NCBI RefSeq assembly: GCF_964355755.1
Contig: NC_092672.1
Span: 7,136,441-7,200,440 of the forward strand
DNA: 64,000 nt
DNA from: Antedon mediterranea
Lineage: Eukaryota; Animalia; Echinodermata
Reading direction: 5' to 3'
Under the pieces are notes generated by a model. The model was not told the DNA's origin. It was given only the letters and a program-made list of their open reading frames with translations, and did not search any database. This document shows, one piece after another, positions 1-43,639 of this stretch (its first letter is position 1; every line of letters begins with the position of its first letter). Position numbers and translations under genes: made by a program.

Positions 1-1041
1 TTCAGCCACGTTTGCTTCACATCAATAGTTAACTTTTTTAACGCTATCGCAATTTGTAACATTAGAAAGTGCGCGCGTAAATGGCGTTTGAAATTTTAAA
101 ATGCTTCAAATCAATTTCTGATTAAATTAGAGCACGATTCAGGTCATTTTAAGCGTTTAAAAAATTGCCACTGGTGCGCACATTTTTACGCGCGCACGGC
201 GCAGGGAACAGGTATGAGCATTTCTTTTACACGATTTGTGTTTTTAAATCTTCTGTTAACAATTTTACGTTATTTTATTCACTTTTCAACTTGAAATGGC
301 GTTCTACGAGCACGTTAAACATGACAGGTTGCGCACGAAAACGTCAACAAATTGTGAAAATGTTCCAAAATATGTCTACTTTTAAAAATGACACAGTTCA
401 TCAGAATGCAAGGTTACCCCCATTTTTTATTTTAATTTCTTGCAGTGTATGAATCATAGGTCTGATTTATTATAGTGTTGAATGCTAAAACGTGTTTGAT
501 GGCTACATTATTTGCATATTAAATATAATTTTTGAAATATTTATCATCAAACAAACATAAACTTATTCAAAGAGCAAAACAATAAACATAACATTTATCT
601 TTTTTCTTTACATGTTAATATATAAAACTTGAAAGTATGTACTTTCATAAAATATCAGCGTTTAAAATTTTTGAAGATTTCATCATAGTAAAATTTATGA
701 TTTAAGTTTGATATGTAATAATCAACTTGCATCGAGGGGGTTCACGACATACCGAATGAACGAGGACTCTTTCTTCGGATTTTCGTCAGCAGGTGGTCAT
801 ATGGCTCGATGTGTAATGCAACCGACTTTGGTATCAGAGGTACCGGGTTCGAGTCCCGTCACGGGAAAACAATTAATTAAAAGGGTTTAGTTGGTTATTA
901 CACTGAGAGGGCAGTTTTAATTTTGAATAGCCTACTTTTTTTGGAAAAGTCATAACTTGGAAGTACTTGAATACGCAAGATACGCTTTGTTGCTGGCGGA
1001 TAACCAAACTCGTCCTCAAGTGACGAGTTTAAGTTCTAGTT
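1..1041 (+). repeat. Unit U0 (partial, diverged R2-type; left edge truncated by window)
   Basis: Shares R2 core (aaattagagcacg...ttttaagcgtttaaaaaattgcca...gcgcacatttttacgcgcgcac) and ends in hairpin ggataaccaaactcgtcctcaagtgacgagtt + CTAGTT. Confidence 0.6.
793..878 (+). repeat. tRNA-derived segment (tRNA pseudogene/SINE head) inside U0
   Basis: ggctcgatgtgtaatgcaaccgactttggtatcagaggtaccgggttcgagtcccgtcacggg: near-canonical T-arm GGTTCGAGTCC (B box) but no intact acceptor stem. Confidence 0.4.
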
Positions 1042-2565
1042 CTTCTTCTTTCTTTCTGTATGATTTTTGTGTAACGCTTTTCTCCAAAACTCGCAAACAT
1101 AACATTTCGGTAACTATGTTAACATTTTGACATTTATGTAACGTCGTCAGGCGAAGCTTTTCATGATGTTTACAATTGCGCAACGTGACGTACGCGCGAT
1201 TTAACGATTTTCTCGTATTTAACATATGTCTACAACCAAATAACATTTCAACTTGAAACTTTGCAAAAGTTTAATTTATATCATGCGCTAACTTTCTGTT
1301 GAAAAAAAATTGCGTGTTTTACATAAAGTTACGCGCGCACGCGCATTTAAAATTTCAAAATGCGCAAAATTAATTTATAATCAACTTTCTACGCGTTTCA
1401 TGTCGTTTTAAGCATGTCAAAAATTCCCACGCTTGCGCACATTTTTACGTGTGCGGTGCGCACGTAGCATTGAAAACGTATTTTTTTCGCGTGATTTATG
1501 TTTTTCCAGCCTTTTCTAGTAATTTTACCAAATTTTAAACAATTTCGACTTAAAGATACGTCATACGAGCACGTCCAATTGGACAATTTGCGCGCGTTTT
1601 TTATGAAAAGGTTAAAAAATTCGTTTAAAATATGTCTTTTTTTAAACAGTCGTAATTTCTAAACTAGACGGTCAAATTTTTGTGGATGACATATTCTGGA
1701 AGTAGATGAGTTGTAGATATCGGATCAGGTATTAATATGGCTAACCGGACATTGTGACGTCATCGTATGGCCACACGAACATAAAATTTAGGATTTTTGT
1801 ATCTTTCGTCATAGCTCATCACATTGAATAGAGCGCATCTCGACTTATCCGTTTTCCATTTTCCCCCCGATTTTGATAATGTCTAGGTCAATCAACTGTC
1901 TTTCGCATGAGTTAAAAATAATTTAATTTTTTTGACGTCATCATGCCTAAAAATTTAAATCACGTGTGGCATCAATTTCATCTTTACAGACAATTTTAAT
2001 CTGTTATAGCTCGTAAGAATAAAATGTGATAATCACGATTAAAACTTTTTCTGTAAGCTATTGGATTGTAGATACGAAATTATGTAAAAATGTTGCCAAT
2101 CGGATGTTGTGACGTCATCATATGGCCAGTTAAATGAAAAAGGTCGTATTTTCATCTTTTGCGTCATAATTCATTACATTTAAAAGAGCGCGCATCAATA
2201 TTTCACGTATTCAAATTTCTTCTACACGCTAATACGTTGTTGCTGAGATAATTTCCTTTCGGAATTGCTACCTTCGCGTTTCATTTTAAAACCGTCAACA
2301 TGTTAAAAATTGCAATAAATAGCGGGTCCCGTAATTTCACCTATTCTACACTGTATGTGATATGGATACAGGTTATACTGTGTATACTATATATGAATAT
2401 AAATAATAAAATTCAGCAATAACAACATATCATATTCTTCAGTTCAGGTCATAATGCCATAGTGAACACTTCCTTTTGTCCTCAACCTATCCCCTTAAGT
2501 TAATGTTGCACCACTTGCGCTGCGGATAACCAAACTCGTCAAAGTGACGAGTTACATGTCTAGTT
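1042..2565 (+). repeat. Unit U1 (R1 family, 1524 bp)
   Basis: 3' palindrome gcggataaccaaactcgtcaaagtgacgagtt + acatgtCTAGTT; internal direct duplication of a ~180 bp segment (1690-1860 vs 2040-2230). Confidence 0.7.
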
Positions 2566-4136
2566 GGTTATCCGCAACGAAGTTGCAGGATAACCTCTTG
2601 TGATTGTACGAAATCATTCTGTATGATTTTTGTGTAACGCTTTTCTCTAAAACTCGCAAACATAACATTTCGGTAACTATCTTAACATATTGACATTTAC
2701 GTAACGTCGTCAAGCGAAGCTTTTCATGACGTTTACAATTGCGCAACGTGACTTACGCGCGATTTAACGATTTTGTCGTATTTAACATAGCTCGACAACC
2801 AAATAACATTTCAACTTGAAACTTTGCAAAAGTTTAATTTATATCATGCGCTAACTTTCTGTTGAAAAAAAATTCCGTGTTTTACACAAAGTTACGCGCG
2901 CACGCGCATTTAAAATTTCAAAATGCGCAAAATTAATTTCTAATCAACTTTCTACGCGTTTCATGTCGTTTTAAGCATGTCAAAAATTCCCACGCGTGCG
3001 CATATTTTTACGTGTGCGGTGCGCACGTAGCATTGAAAACGTATTTTTTTCACGTGATTTATGTTTTTCCAGCCTTTTCTAGTAATTTTACAAAATTTTA
3101 AACAATTTCGACTTAAAGATACGTCATACGAGCACGTCGAATTGGACAATTTGCGCGCGTTTTTTATGAAAAGGTTAAAAAATTTGTTTAAAATATGCCT
3201 TTTTTAAAACAGTCGTAATTTCTAAACTAGACGGTCAAATTTTTGTGGATGACATATTCTAGAAGTAGATGAGTTGTAGATGTCGGATCAGGTACTAATA
3301 TGGCTAACCGGACATTGTGACGTCATCGTATGGCCACGCGAATATAAAATTTAGGATTTTTGTATCTTTCGTCATAGCTCATCACATTGAATAGAGCGCA
3401 TCTCCACTTATCCGTTTTCCATTTTCACCCCGATTTTAATATTGTCTAGGTCAATCAAGTATCTTTCGCATGAGTTAAAAATATTTTAATTTTTTTGACG
3501 TCATCATGCCTAAAAATTTAAATCACGTGTGGCATTAATTTCATCTTTACAGTAAATTTTAATCTGTTATAGCTCGTAAGAATAAAATGTGATAATCACG
3601 ATTAAAACTTTTTCTGGAAGCTATTGGATTGTAGATACAAAATTATGTAAAAATGTTGCCAATCGGATGTTGTGACGTCATCATATGGCCAGTAAAATAA
3701 AAAAGGTCGTATTTTCATCTTTTGCGTCATAATTCATTACATTTAAACGAGCGCGCATCAATATTTCACGTATTCAAATTTCTTCTACACGCTAATACGT
3801 TGTTGCTGAGATAATTTCCTTTCGGAATTGCTACCTTCGCGTTTCATTTTAAAACCGTCAACATGTTAAAAATTGCAATAAATAACGGGTCCCGTAATTT
3901 CGCCTATTCTATGTATGTCACTGTATGTGATATGGATACAGATTATACTGTGTATACTATATATGAATTTAAATAATAAAATTCAGCAATAACAACATAT
4001 CATATTCTTCAGTTCAGGTCATAATGCCAACGTGAACACTTCCTTTTGTCCTCAACCTATCCCCTTAATGTTAATGTTGCACCACTTGCGCGGCGGATAA
4101 CCAAACTCGTCAAAGTGACGAGTTACATGTCTAGTT
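2566..4136 (+). repeat. Unit U2 (R1 family, 1571 bp) with 5' motif GGTTATCCGC and 3' GCGGATAACC (terminal inverted motifs)
   Basis: 5' ggttatccgcaacgaagttgcaggataacc palindrome; 3' gcggataaccaaactcgtcaaagtgacgagttacatgtCTAGTT. Confidence 0.7.
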
Positions 4137-5549
4137 TATTTATTCTTTCCTTAGCACTATTTTGTCCGTGCATTATCTTGGCATCAGTTTCATCTAGCTA
4201 AGTCAAGTTTTCAGAGTATATTCCTTATGGCCAGGAATCGATGTGGTTATATTTTCACGATGCGTAATCAAAAATTACGCGGTCTACGCGCGATTTTACG
4301 AAATCACGTTTGTAATCATATCTTCACAAGCATGAATCACAATTAAACAAAATTTGGTACTCATAAATTTCAGGTCATATTTCATCATATGGCAATTAAA
4401 TTACGTGCGTAGCGCATATAACGCTTGCGTACGCGCGCTTAAAATGTTCAAAATTGTCAAAATTTATTTTCGATGAAATTAGAGTACGTTTCAGGCAATT
4501 TTAAGCGTTTAAAAAATTGCCATGAGTGCGCAGATTTTTGCACGCGCACTGCGCGTTAAACGTTAATGCGCACTCTTTTTGCCCGATTTCTGTTTTACAA
4601 TCTTTCTTTAATAATATCATCATATTTGATTCAGGTTTCAACTCGAAATTGCGTTATACGAGCACGTCAAAAGTGACTGGCTACGCACGTATAAGTTAAC
4701 AAAATGGTGAAAATATGCTAAATTTTAAAATTAATATATATCGTCAGAATGCAGGGGAACACCTATTTTTTATTTCATTTTCTTGAAGTGTATGTATCAT
4801 ATGTATGATTTATTATCAAATTAAGAGAACAAAAGTTGATTAAGTCATCATTAATTGCATATTAAATTAAAAAAACATAATTTCGACAATCAAACAAATT
4901 ATGACATTTTCTTAGGCCAAAATAACAAACTTAACATTAACTTTCTTCCTTCAAAAATTCATATATTAAAGTTAAAAGTATGTAGTTTGACAGTGCATCA
5001 TTTGTATACATTTTAAAGATGTCATCATAGTAAAAAATTATAATTCATTTCAGTATGTAATAATCTATTTGCATCAAAGTGGTTACTGCATAGTAAATAC
5101 ACGGAGGAATTTTTCTACAACTTTTAGTCAGTTGTGTACGGCTCGGTGGTCTGTGCTCGTGTCTATGGCATTCAAGGTACCGAGATCGAGTCTCACCTTG
5201 GGAAACGAAATAAGATTTTTTTTTTATTATCCGTATTGTTTGTTCAAATTTATTTCTTAGTGTATAGATTATACACATGATTTATAATGAAATCTAGATA
5301 AAAATTTACTTATGTCTTTATTATTATGTAACAACAAATGTGGTTTATGACATTATACGCATATGGATCTTTGATCGGATTGTGATACCGGCTATGGTGT
5401 TCGCGTTAGCAAGGTCCTATCATATATTATAAATAATTAAAGATTCTGAGAAAATCAATCAATCAATATATCTTTTAAAAATCAATTATCTTTATTTAAA
5501 TCAATGCATATAACCTATAATTCGTCATAGTGACGAATTAAATCTAGTT
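4137..5549 (+). repeat. Unit U3 (R2 family, 1413 bp)
   Basis: Starts tatttattctttccttagcac, ends cataacctataattcgtcatagtgacgaattaaatCTAGTT. Confidence 0.7.
5122..5230 (+). repeat. tRNA-derived Pol III-like module with T-run in U3
   Basis: tagtcagttgtgtacggctcggtgg (A-box-like) ... ggtaccgagatcgagtctcacc (B-box-like) ... gggaaacgaaataagaTTTTTTTTTTT. Confidence 0.45.
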
Positions 5550-6971
5550 TATTTATTTATTCTTTCCTTAGCACTATTTTGTCCGTGAATTATCTTGATA
5601 TCAGTTTCATCTATCTAAGTCAATTTTTCAGAGTATATTCCTTATGGCCAGGAATCGATGTGGTTATATTTTCACGATGCGTAATCAAAAATTACGCGGT
5701 CTACGTGCGATTTTACGAAATCACGTTTGTAATCATATCTTCACAAGCATGAATCACAATTAAACAAAATTTGGTACTCATAAATTTCAGGTCATATTTC
5801 ATCATATGGCAATACAATTACGTGCGTAGCGCATATAACGCTTGCGTACGCGCGCTTAAAATGTTCAAAATTGTCAAAATTTATTTTCGATGAAATTAGA
5901 GTACGTTTCAGGCAATTTTAAGCGTTTAAAAAATTGCCATGAGTGCGCAGATTTTTGCACGCGCACTGCGCGTTATACGTTAATGCGCACTCTTTTTGTC
6001 CGATTTCGGTTGTACAACCTTTCTTTAATAATATCATCATATTTTATTCACTTTTCAACGCGTAATTGCCTTATACGAGCACGTCAAAAGTGACAGGCTA
6101 CGCACGTGTAAGTTAACAAAATGGTGAAAATATGCTAAATTTTAAAATTAATATAGATCGTCAGAATGCTCGGGAACACATATTTTTTATTTAATTTTCT
6201 TGAAGTGTATGTATCTTATGTATGATTTATTATTAAACTAAGGGAACAAAAGTTGATTAAGCCATAATTAATTGCATATTAAATTAAAAAAAATTCATTT
6301 CGACAATCAAACAAATTATGACATTTTCTTAGGCCAAAATAACAAACTTAACATTAACTTTCTTCCTTCAAAAGTTCATATATTAAAGTTAAAAGTATAT
6401 AGTTTGACAGTGCATCATTTTTGTACATTTTTAGAGATGTCATCATAGTAAAAAATTATAATTCATTGCGGTATGTAATAATCTATCTGCACCAAAGTGG
6501 TTACTGCATAGTAAATACACGGAGGAATTTTTCTACAATTTTTAGTCAGTTGTGTATAGCTCGGTGGTGTGTGCTCGTGTCTATGGCAATCAAGGTACCG
6601 AGATCGAGTCTCACCTTGGGAAACGAAATAAATTTTTTTTTTTATTATCCGTATTGTTTGTTCAAATTTATTTCTTAGTGTATATATTATACACATGATT
6701 TATAATGAAATCTAGATAAAAAATAACTTATGTCTTTATTATTATGTAACAGCAAATGTGGTTTATGACATTATACGCAGAGGGATCTTTGATCGGATTG
6801 TGATACCGGCTATTGTATTCGCGTTAGCAAGGTCCTATCATATATTATATATTATTTAAAGAATCTGAGAAAATCAATGAATCAAAATATCTTTTAAAAA
6901 TAAATTATCTTTATTTTAATTATCAATGCATATAACCTATAATTCGTCATAGTGACGAATTAAATCTAGTT
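5550..6971 (+). repeat. Unit U4 (R2 family, 1422 bp)
   Basis: Near-identical to U3/U5; same terminal palindrome aattcgtcatagtgacgaatt + CTAGTT. Confidence 0.7.
6541..6648 (+). repeat. tRNA-derived Pol III-like module with T-run in U4
   Basis: Same module as 5122-5230. Confidence 0.45.
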
Positions 6972-8392
6972 TCTTTATTTATTCTTTCCTTAGCACTATT
7001 TTGTCCGTGAATTATCTTGATATCAGTTTCATCTATCTAAGTCAATTTTTCAGAGTATATTCCTTATGGCCAGGAATCGATGTGGTTATGTTTTCAGGGT
7101 GCGCAATCAAACATTACGCGGTCTACGCGCGATTTAACGAAATCACGTTTGTAATCATATCTTCACAAGCATGAATCACTTTTAAACAAAATTTGGTACT
7201 CATAAATTTCAGGTCATATTTCATCATATGGCAATACAATTACGTGCGTAGCGCATATAATGCATGCGTACGCGCGCTTAGAATGTTGAAAATTGTCAGA
7301 ATTTATTTTCGATGAAATTAGAATACGTTTCAGGCAATTTTAAGCGTTTAAAAAATTGCCATGAGTGCGCAGATTTTTGCACGTGCACTGCGCGTCAAAC
7401 GTTAATGCGCACTGTTTTTGTCCGATTACTGTTGTATAACCTTTCTTTAATAATATCATCATATTTTATTCACTTTTCAATGCGAAACAGCGTTATACGA
7501 GCACGTCAAAAGTGACAGGCTACGCACGTGTAAGTTAACAAAATGGTGAAAATATGCTAAATTTTAAAATTAATATATATCGTTAGAATGCTCGGGAACA
7601 CCTATTTTTTATTTAATTTTCTTGAAGTGTATGTATCATATGTATGATTTCTTATCAAATAAAGAGAACAAAAGTTGATTAAGTCATCATTAATTGCATA
7701 TTAAATTAAAAAAAAATAATTTCGACAATCAAACAAATTATGACATTCTCTTAGGCCAAAATAACAAACTTAACATTAACTTTCTTCCTTCAAAAATTCA
7801 TATATTAAAGTTAAAAGTATGTAGTTTGACAGTCCATCATTTGTATACATTTTAAAGATGTCATCATAGTAAAAAATTATAATTCATTTCGGTATGTAAT
7901 AATCTATTTGCATCAAACTGGTTACTGCATAGTAAATACACGGAGGAATTTTTCTACAACTTTTAGTCAGTTGTGTACGGCTCGGTGGTCTGTGCTCGTG
8001 TCTATGGCATTCAAGGTACCGAGATCGAGTCTCACCTTGGGAAACGAAATACGAATTTTTTTTTTTATTATCCGTATTGTTTGTTCAAATTTATTTCTTA
8101 GTGTATAGATTATACACATGATTTATAATGAAATCTAGATAAAAATTAACTTATGTCTTTATTTTATTATGTAACAACAAATGTGGTTTATGACATTATA
8201 CGCATATGGATCTTTGATCGGATTGTGATACCGGCTATGGTGTTCGCGTTAGCAAGGTCCTATCATATATTATAAATAATTAAAGATTCTGAGAAAATCA
8301 ATCAATCAATATATCTTTTAAAAATCAATTATCTTTATTTAAATCAAGGCATATAACCTATAATTCGTCATAGTGACGAATTAAATCTAGTT
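6972..8392 (+). repeat. Unit U5 (R2 family, 1421 bp)
   Basis: Same structure, terminal palindrome + CTAGTT at 8387-8392. Confidence 0.7.
7962..8067 (+). repeat. tRNA-derived Pol III-like module with T-run in U5
   Basis: Same module. Confidence 0.45.
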
Positions 8393-10029
8393 AGGTTATA
8401 TGCATTATCATGCATATAACCTCTTGATTCTGTCAAAATCTTTATTAGTTATCCGCATTTAGCGGATAACTCCTTGTAACTGTCCTGTGTCTTTTTTTTT
8501 TTTTTCATTATTCTTCAGTCTTTCTCCCTCACTTTTTGTGCAGAGCGTATCTCTAAAATGGGTAAACATAACATTTCATAACTTTGTCAACATATGGGCA
8601 TTTACGTGAAGTTGTGCACCTCCTATTTTTGAATGACGTCATAGTTACGCAACGTGACTTACGCATGATTTTATGATTTTTTTAAATTGATCATAGATAT
8701 AAAACCAAGTGTAATTTTTTTTTGTACACTTTGTGAAAATTTAAGTCATATCAAGGGCAAACTTTTTGTGCACAAAAAATGGCATGTTTTACAAGAAGTT
8801 ACGCGCGCACGCGCGTTTAAAATTTTATAATGCGAAAAATCAATTTCTAATTAATTTTCTACGCGTTTCTTGTCATTTTGAGCATGTCAAAAATTCCCAC
8901 GCATGCGCAAATTTTTACGGGCGCGGTGCACACGTAGCGTTAAAAACATACTTTTTCCACGTGATTTATGTTTTTTCAGCCTTTTCTAGTAATTTTAACA
9001 ACTTTTAAACAATTTCGACTTAAAATTACGTCATACGAGCACGCCGAATTGGATAATTTGTGCGCGTTTTTGATGAAAAAGTTAACAAATTCGTCAAAAT
9101 AAAGCATTTTTTTAAACAGTCGTAGTTTCTAAACTAAACGGTAAAAATTATTTTTATTACATATTCTGGAAGTTGATGAGTTGTAGATATCGGATCATGC
9201 TTTAAAATGGCTAACCGGACATTGTAACGTCATCGTATGGCCACACGAATATAAAATATAGGATTTTTGTATCTTTCGTCATAGCTTATCAGATTTAATA
9301 GAGCGCATCTCCACTTATCCGTTTTTCATTTTCACTTTGATTTTTATATTGTCTAGGTCAATCAATTTTCTTTCGCATGAGTTAAAAATATTTTAATTTT
9401 TATGACGTCATAATGTCTAAAAATGTAAATATCCCGGGTCACATATTTTCATCTTTACAGTAAATTTTAATCTGTTATAGCTCGTCAGAATAAAAAGTGA
9501 TAATCATGATTACAACGTTTTCTGGAAGCTATTGGATTGTAGATACGAATTCATGTAAACATTTTGCCAATCGAATGTTTTGACGTCATCATATGGTCAG
9601 CTGAATAAAAAAAGTCATATTTTCATATTTTGCGTAATAGTTCATCACATTTAAAAGAGCGCGCATCTATATTTTACGTATTTAAATTTCTTCTACACAT
9701 TAATATGTGGTTGCTGATATAATTTCCTTCCGAATTTGCTATCTTAGTGTTTCATTTTGATACCGTCGCCATGTTAAAAATTGGAATAAAGAGCGGGTCC
9801 CGTAATTTCACCTATTCTTCACTGTATGTGATATGTATACAGATTATACTGTGTAACTATACTATGACACAAAATAACAGAATTCAACACTAACAACATA
9901 TCATATTCATCAGTTCAGGTCATAATGCCATAATCTTTTTCTGTGTGCAATATTCCAACGTATGACGTGCACGTGGCGTTTGTCGTGCGGATAACTAACT
10001 CGTCAAAGTGACGAGTTTCATGTCTAGTT
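8393..10029 (+). repeat. Unit U6 (R1 family variant, 1637 bp)
   Basis: 5' palindromes ggttatatgcattatcatgcatataacc and agttatccgcatttagcggataact; 3' gcggataactaactcgtcaaagtgacgagtttcatgtCTAGTT. Confidence 0.7.
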
Positions 10030-11609
10030 AGTTATCCGCTTAGTAGCGGATAACTCCTTGTAATCGTCCTGTTTCATCAAATTTTTTTTTTTCTGTATTA
10101 TACTTCTTTCTTTCTGTCATTTTTGTGCGTCGCGTTTCTCTAAAACGTGTAAACAGAACATATCGTAACTTTGTCAACATATCGACATTTACGTGAACTT
10201 GTGCACCTCCTATTTTTGAATGACGTCAGAGTTGCGCAACGTGACTTACGTGCGATTTTATGAATTTCAATGATTGATCATAGACTAAAAACCAAACATA
10301 ATTTTGTTTTGAAACTTTGTGAAAATTTAAGTCATATCAAGCGCAAACTTTCTATGGATTAAAAATAGCATGTTTCACAAAAAGTTACGCGCGCACGCGC
10401 GTTTAAAATTTTAACGTGCGAAATATTAACTTCTAATCAACTTTCTATGCGTTTCATGTCATTTTGAGCATGTCAAAAATTCCCACGCGCGCGAACATTT
10501 TTACGCACGCGGTGCACACGTAGCGTTAAAAACATATTTTTTTCGCGTGATTTATGTTTTTTCAGCCTTTTCTAGTAATGTTACCAAATTTTAAACAATT
10601 TCGACTTAAAATTACGTCATACGAGCACGTCGAATTAGATAATTTGCACGCGTATTTGGTGAAAAAGTTAAAAAATTCGTCAAAATTATGCCTATTTTTA
10701 AACAGTCATAGATTCTAAACTACATGGAGAACTTTTTTTTAATTACATATTCTGGAAGTTGATGAGTTGTAGATATCGGATCATGCATTAATAAGGCTAA
10801 CCGGACTTTGTGACGTCATCGTATGGCCACGCGAATATAAAATAGAGGATTTTTGTCTATTTCGTCATAGCTCATCACATTTAATAGAGCGCATCTCCAC
10901 TTATTCGTTGTCCATTTTCATTCCGATTTTAATATATTCTAGATCTATCAACAATCTTTTGCATGAATTAAAAATTTTTTAATTTTGTTAACGTCATCAT
11001 GCCTAAAAATTTAAATTACGTTGGTCATTAATTTCATCTTTACAGTAAATTTTAATCAGTTATGCCTCGTAAGAATAAAATGTGATAATCACAATTAAAA
11101 CGTTTTCAGGAAGCTATTGTATTGTAGATACAAAATCATGTGTAAATTGTGCCAATCGAATGTTGTGACGTCATCATATGGCCAGTTAAATAAAAAAAGT
11201 CGTATTTTCATCTTTTGCATTATATTTCATTACATTTAAAAGAGCGCGCATCAATATTTCACGTATTCAAATTTCTTCTACACGTTAATACGTTGTTGCT
11301 GAGATAATTTCATTCAGAAATTTCTACTTTTACATTTCATTTTGAAACCGTCAAGATGTTAAAAATTACAATAAAATACGGGTCCCGTAATTTCACCTAT
11401 TTTACACTGTTTGTGATATGTATACAGATTGTACTGTGTATACTATATGACACAAAATAACAGAATTCAGAAATAACATATCATATTCTTCAGTTCAGGT
11501 CATAATGCCTTAATATTTTTCTGTGTGCAATATTCTAACGTATGACGTGCACGTGGCGTTTGTCGAGCGGATAACTAACTCGTCAAAGTGACGAGTTTCA
11601 TGTCTAGTT
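10030..11609 (+). repeat. Unit U7 (R1 family variant, 1580 bp)
   Basis: 5' agttatccgcttagtagcggataact palindrome; 3' hairpin + CTAGTT at 11604-11609. Confidence 0.7.
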
Positions 11610-13028
11610 TATTTATTCTTTCCTTAGCACTATTTTGTCCGTGAATTATCTTGATATCAGTTTCATCTATCTAAGTCAATTTTTCAGAGTATATTCCTTA
11701 TGGCCAGGAATCGATGTGGTTATATTTTCACGATGCGTAATCAAAAATTACGCGGTCTACGCGCGATTTTACGAAATCACGTTTGTAATCATATCTTCAC
11801 AAGCATGAATCACAATTAAACAAAATTTGGTACTCATAAATTTCAGGTCATATTTCATCATATGGCAATACAATTACGTGCGTAGCGCATATAACGCTTG
11901 CGTACGCGCGCTTAAAATGTTCAAAATTGTCAAAATTTATTTTCGATGAAATTAGAGTACGTTTCAGGCAATTTTAAGCGTTTAAAAAATTGCCATGAGT
12001 GCGCAGATTTTTGCACGCGCACTGCGCGTTATACGTTAATGCGCACTCTTTTTGTCCGATTTCGGTTGTACAACCTTTCTTTAATAATATCATCATATTT
12101 TATTCACTTTTCAACGCGTAATTGCCTTATACGAGCACGTCAAAAGTGACAGGCTACGCACGTGTAAGTTAACAAAATGGTGAAAATATGCTAAATTTTA
12201 AAATTAATATAGATCGTCAGAATGCTCGGGAACCCATATTTTTTATTTAATTTTCTTGAAGTGTATGTATCTTATGTATGATTTATTATTAAACTAAGGG
12301 AACAAAAGTTGATTAAGCCATAATTAATTGCATATTAAATTTAAAAAAATTCATTTTGACAATCAAACAAATTATGACATTTTCTTAGGCCAAAATAACA
12401 AACTTAACATTAACTTTCTTCCTTCAAAAGTTCATATATTAAAGTTAAAAGTATATAGTTTGACAGTGCATCATTTTTGTACATTTTTAGAGATGTCATC
12501 ATAGTAAAAAATTATAATTCATTGCGGTATGTAATAATCTATCTGCACCAAAGTGGTTACTGCATAGTAAATACACGGAGGAATTTTTCTACAATTTTTA
12601 GTCAGTTGTGTATGGCTCGGTGGTGTGTGCTCGTGTCTATGGCACTCAAGGTACCGAGATCGAGTCTCACCTTGGGAAACGAAATAATTTTTTTTTTTTT
12701 ATTATCCGTATTGTTTGTTCAAATTTATTTCTTAGTGTATATATTATACACATGATTTATCATGAAATCTAGATAAAAAATAACTTATGTCTTTATTATT
12801 ATGTAACAGCAAATGTGGTTTATGACATTATACGCAGAGGGATCTTTGATCGGATTGTGATACCGGCTATTGTATTCGCGTTAGCAAGGTCCTATCATAT
12901 ATTATATATTATTTAAAGAATCTGAGAAAATCAATGAATCAAAATATCTTTTAAAAATAAATTATCTTTATTTTAATTATCAATGCATATAACCTATAAT
13001 TCGTCATAGTGACGAATTAAATCTAGTT
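11610..13028 (+). repeat. Unit U8 (R2 family, 1419 bp)
   Basis: Near-identical to U4; terminal palindrome + CTAGTT. Confidence 0.7.
12596..12701 (+). repeat. tRNA-derived Pol III-like module with T-run in U8
   Basis: Same module. Confidence 0.45.
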
Positions 13029-14432
13029 TATTTATTCTTTCCTTAGCACTATTTGTCCGTGAATTATCTTGGCATCAGTTTCATCTATCTAAGTCAATTT
13101 TTCAGAGTATATTCCTTATGGCCAGGAATCGAAGTGGTTATGTTTTCACGATGCGCAATCAAAAATTACGCGGTCTACGCGTGATTTAACGAAATCACGT
13201 TTGTAATCATATCTTCACAAGCATGAATCACAATTAAACAAAATTTGGTACTCATAAATTTCAGGTCATATTTCATCATATGGCAATACAATTACGTGCG
13301 TAGCGCATATAACGCATGCGTACGCGCGCTTAAAATGTTGAAAATTGTCAGAATTTATTTTCGATGAAATTAGAGTACGTTTCAGGCAATTTTAAGCGTT
13401 TAAAAAATTGCCATGAGTGCGCAGATTTTTGCACGTGCACTGCGCGTCAAACGTTAATGCGCACTGTTTTTGTCCGATTACTGTTGTATAACCTTTCTTT
13501 AATAATATTATCATATTTTATTCACTTTTCAACGCGAAACAGCGTTATACGAGCACGTCAAATGTGACAGGCTACGCACGTGTAAGTTAACAAAATGGTG
13601 AAAATTTTAAAATTAATATATATCGTTAGGATGCTCGGGAACACCTATTTTTTATTTAATTTTCTTGAAGTGTATGTATCATATGTATGATTTATTATGA
13701 AATTAGAAGAACAAAAGTTGATTAAGTCATCATTAATGGCATATTAAATTTAACAAAATTAATTTCGACAATCAAACAAATTATAACATTTTCTTAGGCC
13801 AAAATAACAAACTTAACATTAACTTTCTTCCTTAAGAAGTTCATATATTAAAGGTAAAAGTATATAGTTTGACAGTGCATCATTTTTTTTCAATTTTTAA
13901 AGATGTCATCATAGTAAAAAATTATAATTCATTGCGGTATGTAATAATCTATCTGCACCAAAGTGGTTACTGCATAGTAAATACACGGAGGAATTTTTCT
14001 CCAACTTTTAGTCAGTTGTGTATGGCTCAATGGTCTGTGCTCGTATCTATGGCATTCAAGGTACCGAGTTCGAGTCTCACCTTGGGAAACGAAATAAGAT
14101 TTTTTTTTTATTATCCGTATTGTTTGTTCAAATTTATTTCTTAGTGTATAGATTATACACATGATTTATAATGAAATCTAGATAAAAATTAACTTATGTC
14201 TTTATTATTATGTAACAACAAATGTGGTTTATGACATTATACGCATATGGATCTTTGATCGGATTGTGATACCGGCTATGGTGTTCGCGTTAGCAAGGTC
14301 CTATCATATATTATAAATAATTAAAGATTCTGACAAAATCAATCAATCAATATATCTTTCAAAAATCAATTATCTTTATTTAAATCAATGCATATAACCT
14401 ATAATTCGTCATAGTGACCAATTAAATCTAGT
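13029..14432 (+). repeat. Unit U9 (R2 family, 1404 bp; last unit, array ends at CTAGTT)
   Basis: Ends aattcgtcatagtgaccaattaaatCTAGTT followed by unrelated sequence ggatattgaaatac. Confidence 0.7.
14007..14110 (+). repeat. tRNA-derived Pol III-like module with T-run in U9
   Basis: Same module. Confidence 0.45.
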
Positions 14433-17117
14433 TGGATATTGAAATACTACTTTCGTTTCAAAATCTTAGTGGTCTTTCAAAGAATATTTATTGTATTTTT
14501 ATACTTTTATTTTCGAATAGAATATGTAGGCCTAGTACGCCACTAACTCGAGGAAGTAACTGCAGGTAATTATCTTTCATTTCAATATTCCCCCATATTA
14601 TTTTTCTACAAAAAAATGTTTCCAAAAATGTTGCTTAGTTTTTTTGAAGTCTTGGAAAGCAGTAGAACACCTGTAGATTGAGGAGAAACTTACAGCATGT
14701 AGCATTGGTACAAAGTCAGTGCCGTGGTACTCCAGATAATAATCCTATGGAGAGAGGTGCTGTGTGTGTGGTTTGAGGATTTGCCTTTCCCTCTTTTCAA
14801 ACTAGATTTCAGCAGTAAAAATGCATGACTCCTCATGACAAACCAACCATGTAAAACCCTACGGGCTTGGACTTAACAATCAGATTATTATAGGTGGGTC
14901 ATGGTTTGAGGGAGGGTATTTTTTTTTTAATTCAAATTTGCTTTAAAACATTTCAGGCACACGTGCACATGTTATGAATGTTGAAAGTAACTAAAACAGT
15001 CGCGCTTTTCAATCGTGAAACACGTCACGTTTGTGTTCACCTCATTTCGAAAGAAACCCCTTAAATAAAAATTACCAAATTGTTAATAAACATTCGGTCT
15101 AAACATGATGCAAAAAAATAAGTAAGTAAGCCGTAATCACATTTCTTAATAAATTGCAGCAATGAATCCCAAAAGCAGACCATATTAACTGAAAGCGGAA
15201 ATTTAACTGTATTTTACGTCGTTATTATAATATGCTGAATAACCATGGGTAAAAAGCATGTACAGTACATTATATAAGCATGTATGATGTTTAACAATTT
15301 ATACACAATCTCACATAATATCTTCCCTTCTATTGTCCCATAGGCATAACTCATATTGTACAAGATAAGTCTATTAAATCCAAAAGTATGTACATACAAT
15401 TTATACTCCATTATGAGTCACTCGATAATTACTTAATGAAATATTTACCGCGAAACCTATTACAATAGTGTTCAATATTTCTTTATTAGGAAGATATAAT
15501 GGACGATTTAAAAACGAAATGTAGGGTTTCATCGGCGGTAAAGTTAGTTCCGGGTTCACGGTGAGTCATCACCTTGCAACTTCACGTGTTCAACTAAGTT
15601 GGCCGTTGGTGGCGATAGCCATTATAGTTGTTTGTTTATTTTCGGACCGCGTTTGAAAGTACATTAGTTAGCAAAATAAAAATTATACTGCAAATTAATA
15701 AAGATCAAATTAAATATATTCATAAAGTATCGGACTATATTGTGGAGAATAATATAAAAAAATACAAAAACAAATTAAATCGGGAGTACTGATGATAAGA
15801 CTTTTTGTTTGAAATCGAGTGAAACCCACTGTTGAGTAAGCTGGCAGGACTGTATAACTATGCGCTACCTGTGTCCCGTTAGGACCCTCTGAAACGTCTC
15901 CCTTCTTAGGACAAATCGCCCCACTGTGTCGCTGAAGTTAGTTTCAAAAGATGTTTAAACTAAATAATGTATTAATTATACTAAGTGGATGGTATTTATT
16001 TGAATAAACTATACGTTAAATTGTTATTAATCTAAGACACTGTGAAACATTGACAACATCAAGCATTTCAATAATGGTAACCGACCGAAAACGTCCAAGC
16101 CAAGACTTCCTTCTAAAACCTTTTTACCCGAGTCATTATCAGTCCGAGAACCATCGTCTACACTTCCATCAAAGTTAAGTTATAGCATGAAGCAATGGTT
16201 ATTCATTCATTCACTATTATTGCCATAAATAAACGACAAGAAAAAAAAACAGATAACACCAACTTATAAAATGGCGATATGAGGTTATTGGGTTGATAAA
16301 ACTGATTCTGTGTCTTTATTATAGGCCTATGGTAATTTATTTTGGTTTGTTGTAATTTATCAAAATCTCTTCTTAATTCGGTTCCTAACCGATTAACAAC
16401 CAATAATGCTTGTAATAATTTATAATTATTAATCAGAAATTGATTACTGTGTACATGCATACGTTCAAAATTAATGAAATTAACACTTCACTGCATTATA
16501 TCACAACTTATGAAATAATGTTTACAATAGCATTTTTGTTTGCGGTGTGTCAAGACCGGAATTCAGGTTTTATTTTCTGTGTGTGCTGAGAATTGAAATC
16601 AGAGGGAGTAATGTCTACTCTGATCATCGATTCTGCAGCTGTCATTTGATAAGCTTAACTGACTATCGCAAGTCATCTAGTCACTAGTATGGTGTATTAC
16701 GTAATTTTAATACATGTTATATGTTTGATGGACGGCCATTGTCTTATAATATCCAAGCGCAAAGACCATATTATTCTAAAATAAACTTATTCTGAATAGC
16801 TACATATTACGATAAAGTTACTTGTTTCTCCACAGAACTGTAATGGCAGCTTACCGTCACGCTATAAAGTTGATTATGCTGTTTACAACTATAACCTCAA
16901 GTGCTAGCAATGGTTCGTGTGTTATTTCTATACCTTTTTCAAAAGAGATCCTATACATCATCATCATCATCAAGTAGCATAATTGTGAAACCTTGATGGA
17001 TTATTTGTAATATACCCTGCTTACTACATTCATTCTTTCTTTGAGATCCAAGAAACATTTATTATATATGGCCTTTGGCCCAAATAATATACAATGTAAT
17101 ACAATATTAAATAAATA

Positions 17118-17831
17118 TCAGTTGAGTGCGTTTAAAAATTCTGTTCTACGTTTAAATGAAAAAAATAAATATTTTCCAAGTTTAACAATAAGATCAGAAT
17201 TTGTGGCAGACATAAGATAAATATATTTTAATTTAGTTGGGTTGTTTGTATAAAAGGAAAACATATATTTAGTTCTAATATCTGAATAAAATGGACAAAC
17301 TAAAGTGAAATGATATTCATCTTCAATTGATTGTAAAGCACATAATTTGCATAATCTTTCATTTCTATTTATACAATTCCATCTTCCTTTTTCAATTTCT
17401 AATTCTAAAATTCCTAGTCGTATCTTAGTCATAATTTGTCTATGTTTGTAATTTGTTACTTTTGTTAGATATTCTTCAATTCCAAACTTATATTTAATGT
17501 GCTTGTAATATTGGAGCTTAGAGTGTAGCCTAGTATCTTCGTAGAATTTCTTTCGTTCAATGTCTGTAAGCCTTTGTTTAAAATTTGAAATAAAAGTATA
17601 TATATTATTAACCTGTTGTGAGTACCATATGTTACCAAATCCATTTATGCATAGTATTTGTTTTACGTCATTGGCCCAACATTGCTCATTTCTTTGAGCT
17701 TTTCTATATTGAAAATCATAACATTGTTTAATAAATTTGTCATTATCCATTTGGATTACTCTTAGCCAATAACGAATTATATTAATGATAATTTGAATTT
17801 GGATAGTGAATCTTCCACATTCTCCTCTCAC
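17118..17831 (-). pseudogene. LINE ORF2 C-terminal fragment with CCHC motif
   Basis: ...GILELEIEKGRW...CKLCALQSIEDEYHFTLVCPFY (CX2CX10HX5C). Confidence 0.55.
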
Positions 17832-17849
17832 TGCAACACTTGGTGCAGA

Positions 17850-18645
17850 ATTACCTATAATAATAATAATAATAAATGAAAACTTATATAGCGCCGGTAT
17901 CCTCCACCCATGTGGCGCTCATGGCGCTTTGTGCATTAACAACGTGCGAGAACATCAGCGAATAGCGACGTCTTTAGGTTGGTCTTGAAACTGTTTAGAC
18001 TAGTTGAGCATTTAACTGTTGCTGGTAAGCTGTTCCATACACTTGCGGCCGCAACGTAAAAAGATCTCTGACCCCACTGATTTTTCGCTCTACGCTCTTG
18101 AAGAAGGTTTTGTGACAATGATCGTAGGCCTCTGCGGGATGATTCGTAACGATCCACAAGGTCAGATAAATAAGCAGGAGCACTGTCATTTAGGATCTTG
18201 AATACAAACAACGCAAGTTTGTACTTAATACGTTGTTGAACAGGCAACCAATGCAAATCCATCAGGACAGGAGTTATGTGAGCGTTTGATTTTGTATAAG
18301 TTACAATTCTAGCTGCCATATTTTGCAAGCGCTGCAAACGTTGTATTTGAGATTTTGGTATGCCAAACAACAAGGCATTACCAATGTCAATTTTAGAAGT
18401 GACAAATGAGTGTACAATCAATTCAGCTGTTTTCTTGTTAAGATTACCGCGAATACGACCAAGGTTCCTAATCGATATGCATGCTGCTTTGGATACAGTT
18501 GTTATTTGTGCTTCCATAGTGAGATTACTATCCAGCATGATTCCCGGATTCCGGACCACCGATGAGGGAGCGATGTTAGAGTTTCCGATTCTGATATGTG
18601 TGATGTTGATTTTGGAGATGTTACATTTAGACCCGACGATAATAA
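17850..18645 (-). mobile_element. Nested 5'-truncated CR1/L2-clade LINE 3' fragment with (ATT)n tail, inserted inside the L1-like element
   Basis: ORF 17936..18559(-) carries the CR1/L2 C-terminal signature (...LQRLQNMAARIVT...HITPVLMDLHWLPV...RIKYKLALFVFK...APAYLSDL...RGLRS...RSFYVAAASVWNSLP...FKTNLKTSLF); plus strand shows (aat)n aaatgaaaacttatatagcgcc at 17855-17890, i.e. the element tail. Confidence 0.6.
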
Positions 18646-19334
18646 ATTCCTAGAATGTATTTACAGAATCTTAGATGAACTTTCTCTAATACTGATATAT
18701 CATTTAAACCCCATATTTCGCTACCATAAAGTAAGATTGGCATAATCTTAACATCAAATATATGGTTCCATATATTAACTTGGAGGTTACCAAAACGCCT
18801 ATGGGTCAATCCTTTTAATGTGAACAAAGCCTTATTAGCTTGTTGACAATTGTATTTTTTGGCTTTATTCCAATTACCATTTGAGTTGAAAACAACTCCT
18901 AAATATTTAAAGGATTTGACAATGTCAACTGTATTTCCATTGTAATTCCATTTTTCAAATTTGTTAAGATTACCACCATTCTTAAACACCATAATATTAC
19001 TCTTGTTAACATTGACAGTTACATCCCATCTTGTACAATAGGTAGATAACTTGTTTAAATAATATTGTAGACCATAAACGGTATCACCAAATAACATAAG
19101 GTCATCTGCATAGAGTAAATGATTAATTTTTAGATTTCCTATTTGGATTCTATGCTCGTCGCCTTCCTCATTTAATGTTTCACTCAAATCATTAATAAAA
19201 ACATTAAATAAAAAGGACAAGAGTGGCGAACCCTGTTGTATACCTATTAGACATTTGAAAGAATTACTAATGTTGCCGTCGACCTTAACATGTGCTGATA
19301 ACTTATTGTACATTGAATTAATAACGTTTAACAT
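18627..19334 (-). pseudogene. LINE ORF2 RT core fragment (domains 4-7, YADD)
   Basis: GIQQGSPLSFLFN ... LLYADDLMLFG ... KYLGVVF ... LLYGSEIWG. Confidence 0.65.
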
Positions 19335-19384
19335 TTTTCCTTTTACTCCTGAATTTTTTAGTTTTATGTGAAGATATTGATGTC

Positions 19385-21301
19385 CTACGGAGTCAAAGGC
19401 TCGTTTAAAATCAATGAAAGCAACAAATACTTTCCCACGTTTTTTCCTAGGTATTTATTAATGATTGTGTTAAGAATAAATACATTTTCCGATGTTCTGA
19501 ACCCCTTTCTAAAACCGGCTTGTTCCTGATGTAGAATGTTATTATCTTCTGCCCAAAATTGTAATCTTTTATTAATAATATGTAAGAAAATTTTAGCAAA
19601 AACAGGAATAAGTGATATTCCTCTATAATTCTCTGGTTGTTCTTTGTCACCTTTTTTAAATATTGGGACAATAAGACTGGTTGCCCATTGCTGTGGAAAC
19701 TGTCCTGTATTATAAATTATATTATATAATTTTGTTATTAGATTGATTACATTTTGAGATGAGTGTATAAAAAGTTCTGGTAATAATCCATCGATTCCAG
19801 GTGATTTACCTGTTTTTTGGGATTTAATGGCATGAATTACCTCATCTACTGTAATGTCATTATTTAGGTTAGGTTCGTTTTCATTTACAGCAGGTTCATC
19901 ATTAATGATACTTTCTACATTTTGATTATCTCTATTTTCATTATTATGAAATAAGGATTCGAAGTGAGTGCGCCATGTATTAATACATATGTTACTTGGA
20001 AAATTTGGTTTTGTTTGTTTTAGTTTAATCCAGAATGATTTGGAGTTTTTTTCTCCTAATGATCTAATCAATTCTGTACGTGATCTTTTAATATAGCTGT
20101 ATTTCTTATTTTTTATTAATGTTTTATATTCTTTTTTTATTTCCAGGTATGCATTAAGCAATGTTTGTGTACGATTGTGTCGGAATCTATTTAAACTTCT
20201 TCGAACTTTGTTTTTAAGTGCAAGACATTGATTGTCATACCACGTGTCTTTAGCTTTAGTTGTTTTATTGTTGGATTTCCTATGGATAATTCCTTTACAT
20301 GCATATTCATACAATCTACCTACAGTTGAAACAGCTTCATCAATTAGGTTATCATTAATCAAGTTAGTTATTTCATTTTTAAGTTCATCGATTTTATTAT
20401 GCTGTAATCTTAATTTAAATGTTTCAGTATATGTTTCTGACCAATTGAATTTAGTTTGTTTGGGACAATTTTCAATATTTAATTTTTTTATTTTTATATT
20501 ATCTTTAGTTAGTAGGCCTAATTGAAACGTAATTGGCATATGATCAGATTCTATTCTATTTTCTACTTTCAAATCTGCTATGTACCTGAAGTTATCAGCT
20601 TTTGTCAATATATAATCGACTACGCTTTTGCCTTGTTGTCCTATGAAAGTGTAGCTTTTACTATACATTGGGTTAATTCTGCCAGTAGCAATTCTTACAT
20701 TCGTTTCTTTACAAAAATTGAGAAGATCTATGCCATAATTATTCGTGACGTCATCTTCATTAATTCTAATTGTTACATTATCTTCATCATCTTCAATATA
20801 TAATTCGTTATCCCAATCTATTGGGCATACATCGTTGTTGACATAATCCAATAAATCTCCTGTTTTACCATTGAAGTCTCCAACAATGAATATTTGATTT
20901 TTATTATTATATTTATATAAATATTCAGCGTATTCGTTTGTAAGTATTTCATATAAATTGTTATTATTAGCATATGGGGAGTGTTGTGGTGGTCTGTAAA
21001 CTACAGCCATTATTATAGAATCGTTCTCCGTTTTGATTCGTAACCACATAATATACTTAGATAAGCTAGGTAATTCTTTAACTTTGATATTAGTTTTATA
21101 ATATATCATAATTCCACCTGTATTTCTACCACGGTGTTGTAACTTTTCTTGCATTTTACTTATACAATTATATCCCTTAATATAGTAGTCATCACTAAAA
21201 GTTGTCCAAGTTTCAACCAAACATATTACATCGAAATCACAAATAAATTTTATAAATTCACAATCACTAAAATTACTTTTTAAACCATTTATATTCCACA
21301 C
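19385..21301 (-). pseudogene. LINE ORF2 N-terminal part: APE-type endonuclease + RT fingers/palm
   Basis: MWNINGLKS... (APE EN), ...FIVGDFNGKTG..., RT motifs ...PGIDGL...; interrupted downstream. Confidence 0.65.
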
Positions 21302-21610
21302 AATAGTCTTTAAAGAGGTGGACGTGTAAATACTTTTACTTATATTTTTATTTGTAACATTGGTATATATATTGTTATTATTGACGTTGTTATTCCTATT
21401 ATTAACGTCGGCGTTTATGTTATCGTTATCTATACCATTAGTTTGACCATTATTAGTTGTATTGTCAATATTTTCTTTTTCATGATTTTCGTTATTATTC
21501 TCACCTTTATTATTATTATTATTGTCATTTACGTCATTATCAACAATTGTACCAATAATATTATTACATTTGTTGTTTATTTGATATGTGTTTGGGCCAT
21601 GGCCGGACCC

Positions 21611-22267
21611 CTATCTAGGTTTATATCTACTATACTTAACTACTTTATCATTATCTATATCATATGTAAAAGTTTCGTCATCAATAATGAGTTTATCGTA
21701 TCTTATTTTGAACGGTTTTCCGCTTTTAATAGCTTCATCTATTTTTGGTTGTAAATTTTTTCTGATCTTACGAACTCTTGCTGTGTAATCTTCGCTGATA
21801 GTAATTTGTTTCCTTCTTTCACCCCGGTCTTCATTTTTGTTCATTTTTCGACGTTGTGTTCTACTTGCTTTTAGAACATTTTCTTTAGTTTTGTAATCTT
21901 TGAATTTCACAATGATCGGTCTCGGTTTAAATCTTGCGTTGAGCCTATGTGCCCTCTCAATCTCAATATTCTCCCCACCAATACCGAGATCATTTGTAAA
22001 GTGTTCTTTTACTTTCTTCTCACTCTGATCCCAATTCTCATGTTCGCTATCTACCACTCCATATACTATTAAGTTGTTACGTCTGCTTTGACCTTCAATT
22101 TTGTCTATATGTTTGATTAATTGTAAGTTCATTGTTTTAAGTTGTTGATTTTCTTCTTCTATTATTGTCATTCTTTCGTTTAGTGAGTCCATGTTGCTAT
22201 TTAGTGTATCAATTTTTTCTTTTACGCTTTTAACATCTCCTGAAATGTCATCCATTTTCTTATTCAA
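21611..22267 (-). CDS. LINE ORF1 (coiled-coil + L1 ORF1/Transposase_22-like RRM region)
   Basis: ...RRNNLIVYGV...IEIERAHRL...RPIIVKFKDYKTKENVLKASR matches L1 ORF1p core pattern. Confidence 0.65.
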   Translation of the reverse strand: MNKKMDDISGDVKSVKEKIDTLNSNMDSLNERMTIIEEENQQLKTMNLQLIKHIDKIEGQSRRNNLIVYGVVDSEHENWDQSEKKVKEHFTNDLGIGGENIEIERAHRLNARFKPRPIIVKFKDYKTKENVLKASRTQRRKMNKNEDRGERRKQITISEDYTARVRKIRKNLQPKIDEAIKSGKPFKIRYDKLIIDDETFTYDIDNDKVVKYSRYKPR

Positions 22268-22409
22268 ATTTCGTGTTCATTGTTTGTAGTTGTATTAATA
22301 TATTTTGTATTGAAGGTTCATTTCCTCCCGCATTCAGCGCAACTTGTGTTGTTGCGTCTTCCGTTGTGGGTTTACCAGTAAGTTCATCCAATGTAGCTTG
22401 TCTAGTGTA

Positions 22410-23725: not shown

Positions 23726-24317
23726 ATGCAAGGCTCTTCGGTTTATTTCAGATTCAACCTTGTATCCCGATCCAACTTTGTACCCAGATTCAACCTCGTA
23801 TCCAGATACAACCTTATATCCAGTTTCAACTTCATATCCACATTCGACCTTTTATCCAGATACAACCTCATATCAAGATTCAATCTCATATCCAGATACA
23901 ACATCATATCCAGATACAACCTCGTATCCAGATACAACCTCAAATCAACATTCAACATCATATCTAGATACAACCTCGTATTCAAATTCAATCTCAAAGC
24001 CAGATTCAACCTCATATCTAGATTCAATCTCACATCTAGATACAACCTCGTATCCAGATTCAACCTCGTATCCAGATACAACCTTATATCCAGATACAAC
24101 CTCATATCAAGATCCAATATCATATCCAGATACAACATCATATCCAGATACAACCTCATATCCAGATACAACCTCAAATCCTCATACAACTTCATATCCA
24201 GATTCAATCTCATATCTAGATACAACTTGGTATCCAGATTCAAACTCATATCCAGATTCACCCTGGTATCTAGATCCAAGCTCATATTCAATATTTTCTT
24301 CAGAATATTATTACTCT
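23726..24317. repeat. 18-bp minisatellite (~33 copies, consensus tatccagatacaacctca)
   Basis: Direct reading; unit is a multiple of 3 and lacks stops, so all six frames appear open (ORFs 23726..24379, 23760..24398, 23743..24291 are repeat artefacts). Confidence 0.9.

Positions 24318-24361
<44 letters not shown>
24318..24361. repeat. (TAC)n microsatellite (~14 copies)
   Basis: tactactactac... directly after the minisatellite. Confidence 0.9.
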
Positions 24362-43560: not shown

Positions 43561-43639
43561 ATTTCGTTTTCTATGACTTTTTAAATTGTTACATTACTTT
43601 AATTATAAAATATATACAAAACATATTTGTATTTGCCTT

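Follow-up and report, generated by a model that had tools for sequence, protein, structure and literature searches.

Ten rolling-circle transposon relics of the Helitron2/Helentron type, joined exactly at their 3′ ends, in the crinoid Antedon mediterranea

How did ten related units come to lie head to tail in the DNA of a crinoid, each of them ending in a hairpin and the hexamer CTAGTT? The units occupy the first 14.4 kb of a 64,000-nucleotide stretch of Antedon mediterranea (contig NC_092672.1, positions 7,136,441 to 7,200,440 of the forward strand), which was analysed as a whole and is referred to here as the window; it is animal DNA with a G+C content of about 33%. Our analysis revealed that the array consists of ten non-coding relics of rolling-circle transposons of the Helitron2/Helentron type, which are joined exactly at their 3′ ends. 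It is probably a nest of non-autonomous elements of this type (HINE/DINE-1-like), which was built stepwise and later locally duplicated or converted. Selfish DNA of this sort is of an ordinary kind; its arrangement is the less usual part.

The units are delimited by one type of terminus. CTAGTT occurs ten times within positions 1-16000 (last bases at 1041, 2565, 4136, 5549, 6971, 8392, 10029, 11609, 13028 and 14433), and all ten unit boundaries coincide with a hairpin followed by this hexamer. The hairpin has a stem of 9-10 bp, lies 3-6 nt before CTAGTT and is perfect in nine of the ten units; the imperfect one, at 14402-14424, carries one stem mismatch. An initial annotation, made from the letters alone, had described a palindrome plus CTAGTT at all ten boundaries, which we could reproduce, and had let the array stop at the last CTAGTT, which is correct except that this point is 14433 and not 14432. 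The hairpin core cgtcaNNNtgacg that it had proposed throughout does not hold for the first unit (1-1041), whose loop comprises 7 nt (CGTC-CTCAAGT-GACG). When the entire window was scanned for perfect hairpins of at least 7 bp followed by CTAGT, nine sites in the array and one weak site (16687, minus strand) were returned, against an average of 1.26 and no more than 4 in shuffled windows, and a stricter terminal pattern gave eight matches versus none in 100 shuffles. By self-BLAST, a partial first unit is followed head to tail by R1,R1,R2,R2,R2,R1,R1,R2,R2, the order that had been read before, and self-similarity ends at 14433. Like units are thus neighbours (A-A, B-B-B, A-A, B-B, with A for R1 and B for R2). 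Instead of the two families originally recognised, we distinguished at least three, namely A with its subfamilies Aa and Ab, B, and a third one represented by the first unit, U0, which is cut by the window edge; since U0 extends past the window start, 14.4 kb is a lower bound for the length of the array. An assembly artefact was rejected because every unit differs from every other.

Both ends of the elements carry matching repeats. Four intact 5′ ends are present (2566, 8393, 8447 and 10030), and TT stands immediately before each of them, including the internal one (TT at 8445-8446). If this TT is counted, the 5′ end opens with a 12-bp repeat whose exact complement is located 44-46 nt from the 3′ end, directly before the 3′ hairpin. 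The terminal inverted motifs of about 10 bp noticed earlier exist as inverted repeats; they are 12 bp long and their 3′ copy is subterminal. The repeats read TTGGTTATCCGC at the 5′ end and GCGGATAACCAA at the 3′ end in the Aa lineage, TTAGTTATCCGC and GCGGATAACTAA in Ab, and TAGGTTATATGC and GCATATAACCTA in B, so that the three pairs differ by compensating changes on both sides. This is the pattern expected if both repeats must pair or be read together. At all four intact 5′ ends, the repeat is, in addition, complementary to an inverted repeat located 4-9 nt further on, and the two form a 10-13-bp hairpin (folding free energy, dG, -10.7 to -12.0 kcal/mol; z -6.4 to -8.1). The 3′ hairpin (dG about -8.5 kcal/mol; z -3.1 to -5.7) stops 9-12 nt before the unit end, and its stem shows one compensated pair, AACTCG/CGAGTT in A versus AATTCG/CGAATT in B, with the core CGTCA...TGACG being kept. 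One hairpin core is found in three families, yet their terminal repeats differ and change in compensation.

The terminal signature of the elements can be written as TT(A/G)GTTATCCGC ... GCGGATAAC(C/T)AA-hairpin-CTAGTT. The intact 5′ ends read TT(A/G)GTTATCCGC or TTAGGTTATATGC, and the base that precedes them is T, not A. The start GGTTATCCGC that had been ascribed to R1 units in general is present in one of the four, A2; A4 starts with AGTTATCCGC, A1 lacks the 5′ repeat, and in A3 a B-type 5′ end (8393-8446) comes first and AGTTATCCGC follows at 8447. In an alignment of A2 and A4, the last 41 columns are 95% identical, the 60 columns before those 46%. This conservation, together with U0, in which an A-type end sits on a B-like body, indicates that the ends behave as conserved, exchangeable modules, as in HINE families.

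Elements of the HINE/DINE-1/Helitron2 type have subterminal repeats of 12-15 bp, the 5′ copy of which lies within about 0-4 nt of the terminus, an inverted repeat beside this copy and T residues at their boundaries, and at their 3′ end the repeat lies 38-60 bp and a stem-loop 8-35 bp from the end (PMC4067079, PMC7492417, PMC5148889). The array elements agree with such termini in every structural feature that could be compared: they have the subterminal repeats, the 5′ inverted repeat with its hairpin and the 3′ stem-loop, and they have no coding capacity. TT stands before each intact 5′ end, the truncated units start in T-rich tracts, and the sole internal insertion lies within a TATT microsatellite. 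The longest stop-free frames of the array span about 100 amino acids and, like HINEs, the units are non-coding: no Pfam match was obtained for the open reading frames of the array, and the frame of the core shared by all units, the only array frame searched, gave 23 candidates but no significant homologue among 5.8 billion proteins. The initial assignment to non-autonomous elements of the Helitron/Helentron type, placed head to tail, is thereby supported by the asymmetric 12-bp repeats with their compensating changes, the 5′ and 3′ hairpins, the TT and the non-coding units. Its canonical version (Helitron1) was rejected, as there is no 5′ TC and no A before the 5′ end; the canonical 3′ CTRR, for which a hairpin about 10-12 nt upstream is typical, is present (CTAG, then TT) and, being common to the Helitron2 type, does not discriminate. 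A classical satellite was likewise rejected, given at least three families plus two subfamilies, identities of 82-99.4% and boundaries that always fall at a structured terminus. Local homogenisation is seen among the B units.

All units lie on the plus strand. U0 (1-1041) is the 3′ part of a third-family element cut by the window start. It resembles B across about 700 bp (84-789 and 4435-5131 are 71% identical) and closes with an A-type 3′ end, composed of the repeat GCGGATAACCAA at 996-1007, a hairpin at 1006-1030 and CTAGTT at 1036-1041. A1 (1042-2565) is an Aa copy truncated at its 5′ end, where it has lost about 75 nt and with them the 5′ repeat and hairpin; it opens in a CTT/CTTT tract right behind the CTAGTT of U0, and its 3′ end is intact (2522-2565). 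The same tract is present in A4, about 75 nt inside the left flank. A2 (2566-4136) is a complete Aa element with the repeat TTGGTTATCCGC at 2564-2575 and the inverted repeat GCAGGATAACC at 2585-2595 (hairpin dG -11.7, z -6.4), a subterminal repeat at 4093-4104, a 3′ hairpin at 4104-4124 and CTAGTT at 4131-4136. It is followed by three B units without a 5′ terminus, B1 (4137-5549), B2 (5550-6971) and B3 (6972-8392), each of which begins in a (TATT)2-3 / TCTT-TATT tract directly behind the preceding CTAGTT. Their 3′ ends consist of GCATATAACCTA, a 10-bp hairpin TAATTCGTCA-TAG-TGACGAATTA and then AAATCTAGTT.

In the next unit (8393-10029), two 5′ termini are stacked ahead of a single 3′ terminus. 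It starts with a 54-nt stub of a B-type 5′ terminus (8393-8446), in which the repeat (T)AGGTTATATGC at 8392-8403 and the inverted repeat TGCATATAACCT at 8411-8422 form a hairpin (dG -12.0, z -8.1) and whose tail is TCTTTATT. A3 proper (8447-10029) is a complete Ab element with the 5′ repeat TTAGTTATCCGC at 8445-8456, its inverted repeat at 8461-8471, the 3′ repeat GCGGATAACTAA at 9987-9998, a hairpin at 9997-10017 and CTAGTT at 10024-10029. A4 (10030-11609), also a complete Ab element, has the corresponding features at 10028-10039, 10045-10055, 11567-11578, 11577-11597 and 11604-11609. Two further 5′-less B units, B4 (11610-13028) and B5 (13029-14433), begin in TATT/TCTT tracts; the hairpin mismatch mentioned above (GTGACCAATT) belongs to B5. 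The array ends with CTAGTT at 14428-14433, beyond which the unrelated sequence GGATATTG follows.

In total, the array has ten 3′ ends and four intact 5′ ends, and six units lack a 5′ end. At three junctions (2565/2566, 8392/8393 and 10029/10030), a 3′ end is joined precisely to a complete 5′ end; at the remaining six, the 3′ end is followed by a unit without a 5′ end that starts in a T-rich tract. Every type of junction has its breakpoint precisely at CTAGTT, where no more than 7 nt are shared and hybrid ends are absent; this argues that the transposition machinery, and not random breakpoints of the host, set the ends.

The units also differ in age. A1 and A2 are 96.2% identical and A3 and A4 86.4%, and identities between these two pairs amount to 82-83%, so that A3 is more similar to A4 than either is to A1 or A2. 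B2 and B4 are 99.4% identical, all other B pairs 94.6-96.4%. The near-identity that had been attributed to 4137-8392 and 11610-14432 as a whole is thus restricted to B2 and B4. Since the ages are unequal (82-99.4% identity), neither a single concatemer nor a 3-unit block can account for the array. The single concatemer was rejected on the unequal divergences of its units, and the duplication of a 3-unit block as a higher-order repeat, suggested initially, on the contrast between the A parts (83%) and the B parts (95-99%) and on the closer relationship of A3 and A4 (86%) to each other than to A1/A2. Derived variants are shared among the B units in a mosaic, by B3 and B5 at alignment positions 119-613, by B2 and B4 at 427-1378 and by B1 and B3 at 745-1009, which shows recombination or gene conversion among them.

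How could a nest with these properties have formed? By analogy with Helraiser and Helitron2 (PMC4778049, PMC5876387), we infer that a Rep/helicase encoded elsewhere would nick the left end and unwind one strand, and that strand displacement would terminate, with cleavage, at the hairpin-CTAG signal. The displaced single strand would then be re-inserted at a T-rich (TT) site without target duplication. Probably, successive new copies joined the array with a constant orientation, using two types of T-rich sites that resident copies offered. Insertion at the TT of a resident 3′ end would yield the precise junctions at 2565/2566, 8392/8393 and 10029/10030; the insertion of a Helitron abutting the end of another one has a precedent (PMC4778049). 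Insertion into a T-rich tract about 50-75 nt inside the left flank of a resident would yield the junctions with truncated units and the displaced 5′ stub (8393-8446). Afterwards, host recombination would have duplicated or converted whole units, as suggested by the 99.4% identity of B2 and B4 and by the mosaic variants among the B units.

Several points weigh against such a nest. It predicts one displaced 5′ stub per truncated unit, and a single stub is visible (for B4 and B5); for A1 and B1-B3, the stubs would either have disappeared or be situated further upstream, outside the window. On both sides of the internal insertion, the sequences TCTTTATT and TATTTATT could be taken for an 8-bp target duplication instead of a microsatellite, and the junctions between B and truncated B units might stem from slippage between similar hairpin-bearing ends. 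A Pfam scan of 30 stop-free frames of the window (27 of them outside the array) detected no Rep/helicase, self-BLAST found no further copies of the array within 14.4-64 kb, and mobility, TT insertion without target-site duplication and copy number can be judged from this single locus only.

Among the other explanations, rolling-circle concatemers survive best, although the chance that they built this array appears to be small. According to this idea, read-through or multi-round replication of circular intermediates generated head-to-tail multimers that were integrated as blocks; in a stronger form, replication ran from one 3′ end to the next and thereby gave units without 5′ ends. The junctions at 2565/2566, 8392/8393 and 10029/10030 are exactly what is expected of circle junctions or concatemers (PMC4778049, PMC5876387), like units are adjacent, and tandem Helitron arrays ascribed to rolling-circle replication are known (PMC12628747, citing Xiong 2016; PMC12001565). 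However, units born together should have diverged equally, whereas neighbours are 86.4% to 96.2% identical and B2 and B4, which are not neighbours, 99.4%; A3 and A4 are nearly as distant from each other as from A1/A2, and families are mixed in the array. Moreover, the published model produces many 5′ ends and one 3′ end, the array ten 3′ and four 5′ ends, and units without a left end should not initiate replication, since Helraiser requires the left end (PMC4778049). The claim that the array is one concatemer fails for the same inequality of ages.

A host-made satellite or segmental duplication is an unlikely origin as well. Here, two or three old insertions would have formed a composite, and unequal crossing-over, replication slippage and conversion would have made the rest with no further transposase activity. 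The mosaic of the B units and the near-identity of B2 and B4 demonstrate that recombination acts at this locus, no copies were found elsewhere in the window or in the collections searched, and the hairpin-bearing ends of A and B (TCGTCAnAGTGACGAnTT...TCTAGTT) are similar enough for template switching. Yet at least five junction types lie exactly at CTAGTT with no more than 7 nt in common and without hybrid A/B ends, and no (TATT)n flank, the expected trace of a crossover between flanks, is present at the A/A junctions. The termini are conserved beside sequence that cannot be aligned, and the compensating repeat changes in three lineages argue that the ends were used and not merely carried.

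It is doubtful that the transposase itself made the runs of 5′-less units by starting at one hairpin-CTAG right end and stopping at the next. If so, the right end would serve as both origin and terminator in this Helitron2/Helentron lineage, like the nick site of rolling-circle plasmids, and circles without a left end would be amplified into tandem arrays, a mirror image of the model for plant centromeres. Finally, a non-Helitron origin, such as a foldback or cut-and-paste miniature inverted-repeat transposable element (MITE) or a repeat derived from a short interspersed nuclear element (SINE) with chance palindromes, is highly improbable: short inverted repeats, a possible 8-bp direct repeat around the internal insertion (TCTTTATT/TATTTATT) and a module resembling a tRNA T-arm in U0 and the B units speak for it, and DINE-1-like elements were once mistaken for MITEs (PMC4067079), but the inverted repeats are asymmetric, with the 3′ copy 32-34 nt inside the end and followed by the hairpin and CTAG, neither ARAGORN nor Rfam detects a tRNA, and the "direct repeat" belongs to a TATT microsatellite whose copy number varies between units. 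A MITE as such was rejected on the position of the 3′ repeat, with no consistent target duplication being shown.

As had been proposed for the two unit types, the families share a core. It comprises about 245 bp with 68-70% identity among A, B and U0, contains the invariant 12-mer ATACGAGCACGT and is found in the same region of every unit, for example at 2898-3141 (plus strand) in A2, 4427-4671 in B1 and 84-337 in U0. An inverted repeat of 8-9 bp, in which two pairs are compensated between A and B, closes the core, which may be a self-contained structured module, the evidence for covariation being thin with about three independent lineages. U0 carries, inside a tRNA-like stretch, a 15-nt match to a T-arm motif, CGGGTTCGAGTCCCG, at 844-858, and degenerate homologues of this stretch are present in every B unit (e.g., around 5140-5210). 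No tRNA was detected in this module by ARAGORN or by Rfam at the gathering threshold; it looks like a captured or SINE-derived sequence. The A units contain an internal direct duplication (in A2, 3274-3399 and 3629-3754, with a spacing of about 355 bp and 71% identity across 126 bp) with the motif GTGACGTCATC(G/A)TATGGCCA, which is comparable to the "central repeats" of HINEs.

Host-gene exons downstream place the array within ordinary gene-bearing DNA. Some 10 kb separate it from the first SRCR-domain exon downstream, in a stretch that also includes kringle and G-protein-coupled receptor (GPCR) exons. SRCR exons and a kringle exon were found at 24527-31298 and exons of a GRL101-like GPCR with leucine-rich repeats (LRR), conserved with Anneissia japonica, at 33504-36632, all on the plus strand; they may be parts of a single large mosaic receptor gene or represent two neighbouring genes. 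For the last LRR-GPCR exon (35592-36629), identity amounts to 72% with Anneissia japonica, 71% with Antedon mediterranea and about 50% with other echinoderm proteins. At the GPCR locus of Anneissia japonica, the exons align at 73-85% nucleotide identity, and no element-related sequence was present in the 23 kb of this locus. Both comparisons place the window in a crinoid or a close relative of this group; a mollusc origin, which base composition had suggested, was rejected because the GPCR has its best hits in crinoids. Further exons encode a mitochondrial carrier (43602-43973, minus strand), a tektin (48492-51475, plus strand; three exons matched) and a death domain (60983-61297, minus strand).

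Between the array and these genes, a decayed long interspersed nuclear element (LINE) occupies 17118-22276 on the minus strand; its endonuclease and reverse-transcriptase domains are broken up among several frames, and at its 5′ end, which has the higher window coordinates, an L1 ORF1-like domain is weakly recognisable. A minisatellite at 23749-24287 consists of about 30 copies of the 18-bp unit CAGATWCAACCTYRTATC with higher periods of 36 and 54 bp; it is followed by (TAC)14 at 24318-24360, and there are long spurious open reading frames in three frames. Outside the array, the Pfam domains detected in the 27 stop-free frames are those of the LINE, SRCR, kringle, mitochondrial carrier, tektin and death domains only. 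Two local direct duplications of about 180-200 bp and about 85% identity (38198-38383 / 38445-38621 and 53989-54171 / 54169-54371) have no relation to the array. In JGI metagenome contigs, a collection that does not include the source genome, exact-pattern scans gave no matches to the 3′ terminus pattern or to a 24-nt motif of B and U0, and the terminus pattern was likewise absent from GTDB genome contigs and IMG/VR, which also lack this genome.

Tandem and nested arrays derived from Helitrons have been reported from plants, bats, Drosophila, oysters, frogs and cnidarians (PMC12628747, PMC12001565, PMC11934779, PMC5148889). The closest structural relatives are the HINEs and DINE-1-like Helentrons (Thomas, Vadnagara & Pritham 2014, PMC4067079), which share with the array the 12-bp subterminal repeats, the 5′ inverted repeat, the 3′ stem-loop, T residues at the boundaries, a T-rich or microsatellite left flank, internal repeats and the lack of coding sequence. 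In contrast to these, the array units have new terminal sequences, a length of 1.4-1.6 kb, no long central satellite and an explicit CTAG+TT at the 3′ end; the host is a crinoid, whereas the echinoderm DINE-1-like elements mentioned in PMC4067079 are those of sea urchin (Tsp) only. Cg_HINE of the Pacific oyster (PMC7492417; PMC12628747) similarly combines a left repeat, an inverted repeat and a microsatellite with a right repeat and a palindrome, its families swap modules, and some loci mix truncated, tandemised and nested elements. However, what is tandem in the oyster is an internal satellite of about 165 bp, whereas here whole elements are repeated and each keeps its right end.

The Helitron2-type FoHeli elements of Fusarium (PMC5148889) have asymmetric terminal inverted repeats and hairpins at both termini, and, like the stub and A3, some copies combine a single 3′ terminus with multiple short 5′ termini (<200 bp), which was ascribed to self-insertion. 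They differ in being fungal, mostly autonomous and of low copy number, and no ten-unit array or 5′-less run that keeps its 3′ ends is described for them (PMC5148889). Plant centromeres contain arrays of truncated Helitrons (Xiong, Dooner & Du 2016; summarised in PMC12628747 and PMC7492417) that are also head to tail, non-autonomous and attributed to replication. In these summaries, however, they have many 5′ ends and a single 3′ end, their inner copies being 3′-truncated, which is the opposite polarity, and they are canonical Helitron1 elements, whereas our array adjoins ordinary genes (SRCR/kringle, GPCR, tektin) with no obvious centromere. The unusual aspect of the crinoid array is its polarity: every unit keeps its 3′ end and most lack the 5′ end.

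Overall, the array provides a clean structural annotation of non-autonomous Helitron2/Helentron-type elements in a crinoid, a group for which a literature search pairing Helitrons with crinoids gave a sea-star genome report only. It also serves as a warning for genome annotation, since what looks like a 14-kb "satellite" is really a transposon nest. Moreover, in combination with genome-wide data, this array could help to tell growth by insertion beside resident ends from aberrant rolling-circle replication.

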